Positions 1,140 to 2,486 of a stretch of 64,000 nucleotides of DNA are shown one piece after another (position 1 is the first letter of the stretch; each line of letters starts with the position of its first letter). The stretch spans positions 64,001 through 128,000 of the forward strand of contig CAXXXD010000003.1 in assembly GCA_963663385.2 (NCBI GenBank). The letters run 5' to 3'. Source of the stretch: Oceanispirochaeta sp. GTDB taxonomy: Bacteria; Spirochaetota; Spirochaetia; DSM-2461. The position numbers and the translations under genes are program-made. The notes under the pieces were generated by a model. It worked only from the letters and a program-made list of their open reading frames with translations. It searched no databases and was not told the DNA's origin.

Positions 1140-1310
1140 TGTTCTAAACATCGTTTAGAACAGCCAGGTTACTGTTCGCCATTTTTACTGGTCTCCGAGA
1201 CCGTACAGGAGAATGAAGAGCCGTGACCGAAACATTCAATGGTCTTCGAGACCGGATAGGAGAATGGAATCAATTCACCGTACAGGCGCTGTTTTAGGCA
1301 ATAGGAGCGA
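1140..1310 (+). ncRNA. Candidate IS110 bridge/guide RNA in the left non-coding end
   Basis: Perfect 10-bp hairpin 1140-1162, then two 27-nt near-identical hairpin modules (1189-1215, 1240-1266; 24/27 identical); position matches known IS110 bridge RNAs. Confidence 0.6.
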
Positions 1311-2427: not shown

Positions 2428-2486
2428 TCCGGTTCAATTGTAAGCTTGTTAATAGGCTTATGATTGACTTTTTATAGGAGTAGAGA

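Follow-up and report, generated by a model that had tools for sequence, protein, structure and literature searches.

The window analysed here, a stretch of 64,000 nucleotides from Oceanispirochaeta sp. (GenBank assembly GCA_963663385.2, contig CAXXXD010000003.1, positions 64,001 to 128,000 of the forward strand), carries at positions 1095-2480 a copy of an insertion element of the IS110 family. The left end of this copy (1100-1314, + strand) appears to encode an RNA of the bridge or seeker type that steers insertion to the Shine-Dalgarno sequence of host genes, a reading to which we assign a probability of about 0.8. RNAs of this type underlie the programmable recombinases, and the variants found in nature reveal which features of the design are open to change. 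In the subfamily represented by this element the guides would be 7 nt long, the core shared by target and donor would comprise 5 nt, and the order of the guide strands would be reversed while the RNA still lies upstream of the recombinase gene, features that bear on the relationship between the IS110 and IS1111 layouts. The target is a nearly universal motif, which may explain both the spread of these elements over distant phyla and their many landing sites.

Element boundaries and target preference

The genome contains ten near-identical copies of the element, active in appearance, each of which differs from the copy in the window at one or two internal positions. Alignment of the copies together with their flanks reveals that the sequence common to all ten is bounded by AGGAG at 1095-1099 and AGGAG at 2476-2480 (both + strand). 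Four public sequencing runs, among them X2, X6 and X9, were compared, all as assembled contigs. Run X2 yielded a 1386-base unitig that corresponds exactly to 1095-2480 and has a depth of 411, against 18-31 for the flanking contigs. In run X6 a contig of depth 2 represents the empty site, joining the two flanks with 1381 bases skipped, that is, the element plus one AGGAG. The ends of the element are the AGGAG copies at 1095-1099 and 2476-2480. Insertion is both site- and orientation-specific, and no target duplication is seen beyond the shared AGGAG core, either in the ten copies or at the empty site; by this analysis strand exchange would have to fall within or beside AGGAG.

These boundaries lie about 20 bp from those given in a preliminary description of this DNA, which had placed the left end at TCTTCAT|AGGCT (approximately 1117|1118) and the right end at 2475, and had interpreted the RNA on the pattern of IS621, with ATAGGAG as the guide to the target core and its right flank and ATGAAGA as the guide to the left flank. 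The motifs occur where they had been located (ATAGGAG at 1256-1262 and 1301-1307, ATGAAGA at 1213-1219), and ATAGGCT is found near both ends; but the sequence shared by the copies, like the X2 unitig, reaches 1095 and 2480, the empty site skips 1381 bases and not the approximately 1358 expected, and TCTTCAT, taken as the left flank, lies inside the element in every copy and in the majority of close homologues. The circle junction proposed in the same account was wrong, since it had been built from the wrong boundaries. We consider that interpretation almost certainly mistaken. What probably misled it is a direct repeat near both ends (1115-1135 and 2449-2468), which reads TTCATAGGCT.. on the left and TTAATAGGCT.. 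on the right, followed in each case by (G)TG(G)ATTGA. The same pattern of end repeats, in other letters, was seen by eye in the homologues, and the right copy constitutes the 3′ half of a conserved hairpin at 2441-2460.

An ATG is found 6-8 nt after the right AGGAG in 10/10 copies, where it opens an open reading frame of 98 to >502 amino acids, and all ten copies are co-directional with this downstream host gene and lie between its Shine-Dalgarno AGGAG and its ATG. The left flank ends in AC in eight of the ten; the remaining two end in GC and AA. The target is approximately AC-AGGAG-(A-rich N6-8)-ATG, i.e. a Shine-Dalgarno site with its spacer. Relative to the 1427 other AGGAG-N5-8-ATG sites of the genome, the ten occupied sites are A-rich (3.8 versus 2.0 A in the first six nucleotides after AGGAG, p = 9e-5) and not T-rich (p = 0.72). 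The full ACAGGAG is present at 140 of these 1427 sites, and the occupied left junctions account for 8 of the 1462 ACAGGAG sites in the genome.

The copy in the window interrupts the junction of citC (53-1105) and citD (from 2487; Pfam ACP/MdcD, 6.4e-28), which is uninterrupted in all eight same-genus relatives with a match. The left AGGAG (1095-1099) is the host Shine-Dalgarno and the shared core at the left junction, and the right AGGAG (2476-2480) serves as the Shine-Dalgarno sequence for citD, whose ATG lies at 2487. Because the element brings an AGGAG at its right end, the downstream gene keeps a Shine-Dalgarno sequence, and operons are interrupted in a defined way, here as citC|citDEF. 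The citC frame is now closed by a TGA that belongs to the element (CAG GAG GAA TGA); prior to insertion its stop would have come two codons past this point, or sooner had position 1094 been T.

A conserved RNA structure and its candidate guide strands

Folding of 1100-1320 with RNAfold gives -68.0 kcal/mol for the + strand (z = -3.80; 0/200 shuffles as good), and a weaker fold for the - strand (z = -2.14; 5/200). In the predicted + strand structure a closing stem, P1 (5′ strand 1126-1135, 3′ strand 1269-1278), encloses a 5′ stem-loop (1140-1162), a putative target-binding loop, module 1 (1167-1228), and a putative donor-binding loop, module 2 (1233-1266). The 5′ stem-loop is a 10-bp hairpin, 1140-1149/1153-1162, with 100% complementarity. 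Module 1 consists of two basal stems (1167-1172/1223-1228 and 1174-1177/1218-1221) and a short CA/TG stem, followed by a U-rich 5′ strand, TTTTTAC (1182-1188), a capping hairpin (1189-1203), and the candidate 3′ guide ACAGGAG (1205-1211). Module 2 has the candidate 5′ guide CATTC (1233-1237), a capping hairpin (1240-1254), and the candidate 3′ guide ATAGGAG (1256-1262). Both modules are capped by a GGTCT..AGACC hairpin, and they share 84% identity across 32 nt when placed in register (1184-1215 and 1235-1266). The preliminary description had already noticed the 10-bp hairpin and the two near-identical modules (as 1189-1215 and 1240-1266), and its proposal of a bridge-type guide RNA at an IS110 left end, with a 5′ hairpin and separate target and donor modules, is upheld by the conservation of the structure and the covariation of the loops.

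The same architecture is found in 29 homologous left ends. They represent the closer clade and are all complete; left ends that were truncated or decayed (L041, L043, L062, L065, L066, and L071) were excluded from the alignment, as were further copies from the same genomes. The consensus fold from RNAalifold has 26 pairs, of which 12 show compensatory change. In a 35-pair structure specified by us, 93.6% of cells are paired, compared with 30-47% when the partner is slid by one to three columns; 12 of its pairs change on both sides (7.3 in shuffles, 1/500 as high), and the covariation score is 0.271 versus 0.164 in shuffles (0/500 as high). The compensatory changes are located in P1 and in both capping hairpins. 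Four of the five P1 pairs tested (1126-1130/1274-1278) change on both sides, with 95% of cells paired, as do three of the six pairs of the module 2 capping hairpin (helix 5).

The two capping hairpins are closed by U-G pairs in 28/29 and 29/29 left ends, and since these would be A-C on the opposite strand, they place the RNA on the + strand. An RNA from the minus strand was considered and rejected: its fold is weaker, its closing pairs would be A-C, and its guides would run outward from the core. We likewise discarded pairing of CATTC with GAATG (1233-1237/1262-1266, helix 4) as a conserved RNA stem, the inner pairs being broken in 7/29 and 9/29 left ends with no compensatory change. A repeat of ACCGTACAGG (1200-1209 and 1277-1286) is not kept in the homologues and was taken as chance. 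The base immediately preceding P1, position 1125, is A in the window and T in the nine other copies and in all four runs compared.

Three of the four guide strands are supported, two by covariation with DNA and one by an invariant match. For the 3′ strand of module 1, agreement between the left flank and the three nucleotides preceding AGGAG amounts to 2.00 of 3 positions, compared with 1.20 when permuted (0/5000 as high; 26 guide types). Position by position, the match is 0.95 at -1 (z = 7.0), 0.78 at -2 (z = 5.4), and 0.26 at -3. As the signal is present at -1 and -2 and absent at -3, the guide would be 7 nt long, ACAGGAG in the window; its sequence is that of the top strand, and so it would pair with the bottom strand. 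The corresponding strand of module 2, ATAGGAG, is invariant, and in every homologue parsed it reproduces the final two nucleotides of the right end followed by AGGAG, which makes it a candidate guide to the donor and not, as previously thought, to the core and right flank of the target. ATGAAGA, for its part, pairs with nothing outside the element; its ATG supplies the 3′ side of the short stem that closes module 1, and AAGA continues into the basal stem.

CATTC, the 5′ strand of module 2, complements the element's first five nucleotides, GAATG (1100-1104, + strand), which would make up the right-hand half of the circle's donor site, and it covaries with them: the homologues display the sets GTATG/CATAC, GCACG/CGTGC, GCATG/CATGC, and GAGCG/CGTTC. 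Over ten distinct combinations the two agree at 4.20 of 5 Watson-Crick positions, versus 3.48 when permuted (1/10000 as high). The partner of this strand within the RNA does not track its changes, pair 173/201 being broken in 9/29; since CATTC changes with the start of the left end but not with its RNA partner, we conclude that the strand tracks DNA.

The 5′ strand of module 1, TTTTTAC in the window, is variable and U-rich. In our own reading it would pair loosely with the A-rich spacer. The covariation of left ends with target sites that the preliminary description had suggested examining came out in favour of the 3′ strand of module 1, which follows the left flank, and gave no clear signal for the 5′ strand. 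This strand was also considered as a sense copy of the left flank (TTTTAC in the flank of the window copy), a possibility abandoned because the L011 family has the same 5′ strand and other left flanks. A search for guides at the positions of the IS621 handshake guides was equally unproductive: the two bases after AGGAG are AA, AT, AC, or AG, with no visible tracking of donor or target.

Several observations weigh against the guide RNA reading. Anchored on the core, the 5′ strand of module 1 reaches a best z of 2.0 among nine offsets against the right flank (23 guide types), which is not significant, and a position-by-position scan of this strand against the right flank reveals no diagonal. Anchored on the ATG, its signal is modest (2.49 versus 1.97 of 6, z = 2.6, 18/3000), and the A-richness of the occupied sites is a test that cannot fix the pairing register. 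Both 3′ strands include AGGAG; the 5′ strands, unlike the guides of IS621, do not clearly cover the core, ending in AC-U or AA-U, with complementarity to its final two bases confined to module 1 of certain members. The permutation tests, moreover, take related elements as independent. A scan of 900-2700 against Rfam 15 gave no match better than E = 4.5 and none that was relevant, although the existence of a bridge RNA model in Rfam was not confirmed. No joint corresponding to the circle junction was found among the assembled contigs of the four public runs. At 1094 the depth-2 contig of run X6 that represents the empty site appears to have T, where the occupied site in the window has C. Finally, the RNA is known here from sequence alone, and we infer its transcription, its binding by protein, the exact point of crossover, the register in which the fourth strand pairs, and the catalytic steps. 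With regard to position 1094, the two states read TTTTAT-AGGAG (empty) and TTTTAC-AGGAG (occupied), and the base in question is -1 of the left flank, a position specified by the guide; ATAGGAG is native at the citC-citD junction in three of the eight same-genus relatives.

That the modules are known only as sequence would also suit a different explanation, in which they act as DNA, i.e. as subterminal binding sites for the recombinase. IS110 and IS1111 elements do carry subterminal repeats, and the two modules are direct repeats. Protein-binding repeats, however, would have no need of loop strands that covary with sequences outside the modules, nor of the compensatory changes that maintain both the hairpins and the long-range stems; the conserved U-G pairs are strand-specific, and NCBIfam designates the family as RNA-guided. 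We regard this explanation as very improbable.

Proposed mechanism, promoter and leader pairing

The guide RNA reading leads to the following scheme. Module 2 would read the donor, formed where the two ends meet in the excised circle: the 3′ strand of the module, AUAGGAG (right end plus AGGAG), would pair with the bottom strand, and its 5′ strand, CAUUC, with the first five nucleotides of the left end, GAATG, on the top strand. Module 1 would read the target, its 3′ strand, ACAGGAG, representing two nucleotides of left flank and the host Shine-Dalgarno AGGAG, and its 5′ strand, UUUUUAC, pairing loosely with the A-rich spacer between Shine-Dalgarno and ATG. The DEDD/Ser recombinase would then, by analogy with IS621, swap strands in or beside AGGAG, and the element would land in the direction of the gene between Shine-Dalgarno and start codon, with AGGAG on both sides. 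In the circle, TTGACT and TGaTAAAAA, 17 bp apart, would form a promoter for both RNA and recombinase.

The recombinase gene (1315-2427, + strand; 370 amino acids) is preceded by a Shine-Dalgarno AGGAG at 1303-1307, and its position leaves non-coding ends of 215 nt on the left (1100-1314) and 53 nt on the right (2428-2480). The product matches Pfam DEDD_Tnp_IS110 (PF01548; 8.7e-21) and Transposase_20 (PF02371; 4.6e-19), and scores 228 bits against NCBIfam NF033542, “IS110 family RNA-guided transposase,” for which the cut-off is 140. Its C-terminal domain aligns with the transposase chains of the solved IS621 and ISCro4 structures (E ~1e-15). In the alignment with IS621, E, D, and D fall in vESt, ktD, and khD, and the Ser in vqnSn stands opposite yeSg; by analogy these are the predicted catalytic residues. 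On the basis of its domain content the element is an RNA-guided recombinase element of the IS110 family, with a predicted DEDD RuvC-like N-terminal domain and a Tnp C-terminal domain. In the plasmid and E. coli records that match, the annotation goes no further than “IS110 family transposase” and gives no finer subgroup name.

Immediately inside the AGGAG copies and the first five nucleotides lie subterminal inverted repeats, ATAAAAAGTC on the left (1105-1114, + strand) and GACTTTTTAT on the right (2466-2475, + strand), 10 bp in length and 100% complementary to each other. The right end further contains a hairpin (2441-2460, + strand) just 5′ of a -35-like hexamer, TTGACT (2464-2469, + strand), which we read from the sequence and which is part of the conserved right-end motif; by eye, the right ends of the homologues have a hairpin in the same place. 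The hairpin at 2441-2460 is overlapped by a terminator-like hairpin (2434-2467) followed by a run of T. In the left end TAAAAA (1106-1111) resembles a -10 hexamer and is preceded by TG at 1103-1104, as judged by eye. In the circular form the two hexamers, both of which lie in the subterminal repeats and are conserved, would be separated by 17 bp, made up of 11 nt from the right end (2470-2480) and 6 nt from the left (1100-1105). The circle is thereby predicted to form an extended -10 promoter from which the RNA would start near 1118, just before P1. A promoter scan of the linear sequence detected nothing on the + strand at the element ends, as would be expected of hexamers that adjoin only in the circle. 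The integrated element, being always in gene orientation, could be transcribed from the promoter of the host gene.

A segment at 1288-1299 (+ strand), 4 nt 5′ of the recombinase Shine-Dalgarno sequence, is complementary to the 3′ half of the 5′ stem-loop (1153-1164) and is a candidate switch. Since the resulting duplex crosses P1, it would represent either a pseudoknot or an alternative fold. Among the 29 left ends the cognate duplexes average -17.9 kcal/mol and the non-cognate ones -10.2 (0/5000 permutations as low), and in 28/29 the duplex equals or exceeds the local hairpin in stability. When the leader is folded alone, its Shine-Dalgarno sequence is predicted to be 44% unpaired, and this rises to 87% with the equivalent of 1288-1299 withheld, in all 29, an effect that is in part trivial. 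The conserved pairing of the 5′ hairpin with the recombinase leader suggests a link between the folding of the guide and the synthesis of the recombinase, and we hypothesize that it may act as a switch between a guide form and a messenger form.

One could go further and regard the left-end RNA as chiefly a cis-acting leader that controls translation of the recombinase, with the matches to the flanks being secondary. The conserved pairing immediately 5′ of the recombinase Shine-Dalgarno sequence and the predicted increase in accessibility from 0.44 to 0.87 in 29/29 speak for such a role. This would leave unexplained, however, why the loop strands covary with target flanks and element ends, and the accessibility test is partly trivial in that withholding 12 of approximately 40 nt frees the rest; nor are the two roles exclusive. 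We judge a leader as the main function to be unlikely.

Comparison with known systems and relatives

The comparison with IS621 draws on portions of two reports (Durrant 2024, PMC11208160; Hiraizumi 2024, PMC11208158). According to these, the 5′ strand of each IS621 loop pairs with the bottom-left strand over 8-9 nt and the 3′ strand with the top-right strand over 4-7 nt, around a CT core. As in IS621, the RNA described here would be encoded in a long, left non-coding end 5′ of a DEDD/Ser recombinase; it would present a 5′ stem-loop, a target loop, and a donor loop in that order, both loops being internal loops capped by hairpins; in each loop one strand would read bottom-left and the other top-right; and the promoter would be split across the right and left ends, although here it is predicted from the sequence. 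The preliminary description had noted that the loops differ from the IS621 model, and rightly so: the same two DNA strands would be read by opposite RNA strands, the 3′ strand here reading bottom-left and the 5′ strand top-right. Geometrically this reversal of guide order is equivalent to turning the DNA through 180 degrees, and the final two bases of AGGAG, taken on the strand opposite the recombinase gene, are CT, the core of IS621. The guides also differ in length (7 nt for the 3′ strand and approximately 5-6 nt for the 5′ strand, as compared with 9 and 4-7 nt in the parts of the IS621 reports used here). In the same material, the core shared by target and donor is the CT dinucleotide (here the 5-nt AGGAG), the subterminal inverted repeat measures 2-3 bp (here 10 bp), the target is a repetitive extragenic palindromic (REP) sequence (here a Shine-Dalgarno site), and there is no counterpart to the extra closing stem which here would enclose the 5′ hairpin and both loops.

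In the sections of Siddiquee 2024 (PMC11187229) consulted, the match to the top strand lies 5′ of the match to the bottom strand in the seekRNAs of IS1111-type elements, and 3′ of it in the IS110-type ISEc21. By this measure the RNA in the window would resemble the IS1111 type (ISEc11, ISKpn4, and ISPa11 in that account), in which the top-strand match likewise precedes the bottom-strand match. Two further likenesses emerge from the same sections, namely that the 10-bp subterminal inverted repeat falls inside the 7-17 bp range of IS1111 elements, and that the target matches overlap at the insertion point. Unlike nearly all IS1111 members as described there, in which the non-coding region is downstream, ours is upstream; ISMtsp17, an exception within the IS1111 clade, also has an upstream non-coding region, a comparison that rests on its mention in that paper. 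The element accordingly reads as a combination of IS1111-like guide order and repeat with an IS110-like position of the putative RNA; the recombinase itself was not placed in a named subgroup.

A literature search returned no paper tying bridge or seeker RNAs to Shine-Dalgarno targets, one match using the term Shine-Dalgarno for a riboswitch, and none that analysed bridge RNAs in the IS900/IS901/IS902 group. Doran and colleagues (Doran et al.) are said to have reported in 1997 that this mycobacterial group of the IS110 family inserts between ribosome-binding site and start codon in one orientation. Its transposase gene is reportedly antiparallel to the target gene, whereas in the present genome the recombinase is co-directional with the target gene in 10/10 copies. 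The hed open reading frame of the IS900 group is described, in the part of the source consulted, as having neither a ribosome-binding site nor a start codon of its own (PMC8141618). Large surveys of bridge RNA diversity exist, known to us in part, and the present family may well be included in their data or supplements.

A scan of one genome per species identified 76 loci coding for relatives, from 79% down to 32% identity. As labelled in the records, these derive from Spirochaetia, Desulfobacterales, Lentisphaeria, Dehalococcoidales, candidate phyla, and others. The right-end motif TTGAC(T/A)T(T/A)TTATAGG(A/G)G is present in 58 of 86 loci. Directly after (A/G)GGAG, complete left ends begin with G-N3-GATAAA, the GATAAA being found in 29/29 of those aligned. 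A distant clade, with 32-35% identity to most of the query protein and 11 copies in a single Lentisphaeria genome, has the same plan in other sequences. By eye, its right end reads ...TTTATCAT plus AGGAG and its left end starts with ATGGT plus ATGATAAA; the candidate module 2 strands are ACCGT and TATAGGAG, and the candidate 3′ strand of module 1, GAAAGGAG, matches flanks that end in AAAGGAG.

A more ambitious claim would join these strands: that the relatives form a cross-phylum clade homing to Shine-Dalgarno/start-codon junctions in gene orientation; that, by delivering an IS1111-type guide order from an upstream RNA, they are a missing link between the IS110 and IS1111 layouts; and that the 5′ stem-loop belongs, as one of the arms, to a conserved three-way alternative pairing by which any given transcript is either an open messenger or a bridge RNA in its folded form, with translation of the recombinase shut off. 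As a whole this is tentative, and we think it would more probably fail in some part than hold.

In one Spirochaetia genome with 15 copies (L011-L024 and L029) the module 1 guide is TTTAGGAG, yet the left flanks of seven of the 15 copies read TATAGGAG. These seven flanks are closer to ATAGGAG, the donor guide, and to the element's own right end than to the target guide. The mismatch recalls the “half-match” recombination of a 2026 preprint, which was available to us in part. At locus L039 the right junction shows a second, partial right end (half of the hairpin, then TTGACTTTTTATAGGAG) after the first, which looks like what is left of a tandem insertion into the right junction of the element itself, a site one base off the target guide.

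Within the recombinase gene of the window copy, 1840-1859 reads GGTCTCGTGGACC and then ATAGGAG, in the manner of the hairpin and 3′ guide of a loop module, a likeness that may be due to chance. Run X9, over the part corresponding to 1072-1118 of the window, contains short contigs of high depth (summed depth up to ~160) in which the start of the left end is followed directly by the subterminal repeat in inverted form; these may represent a miniature derivative of a related element in another organism.

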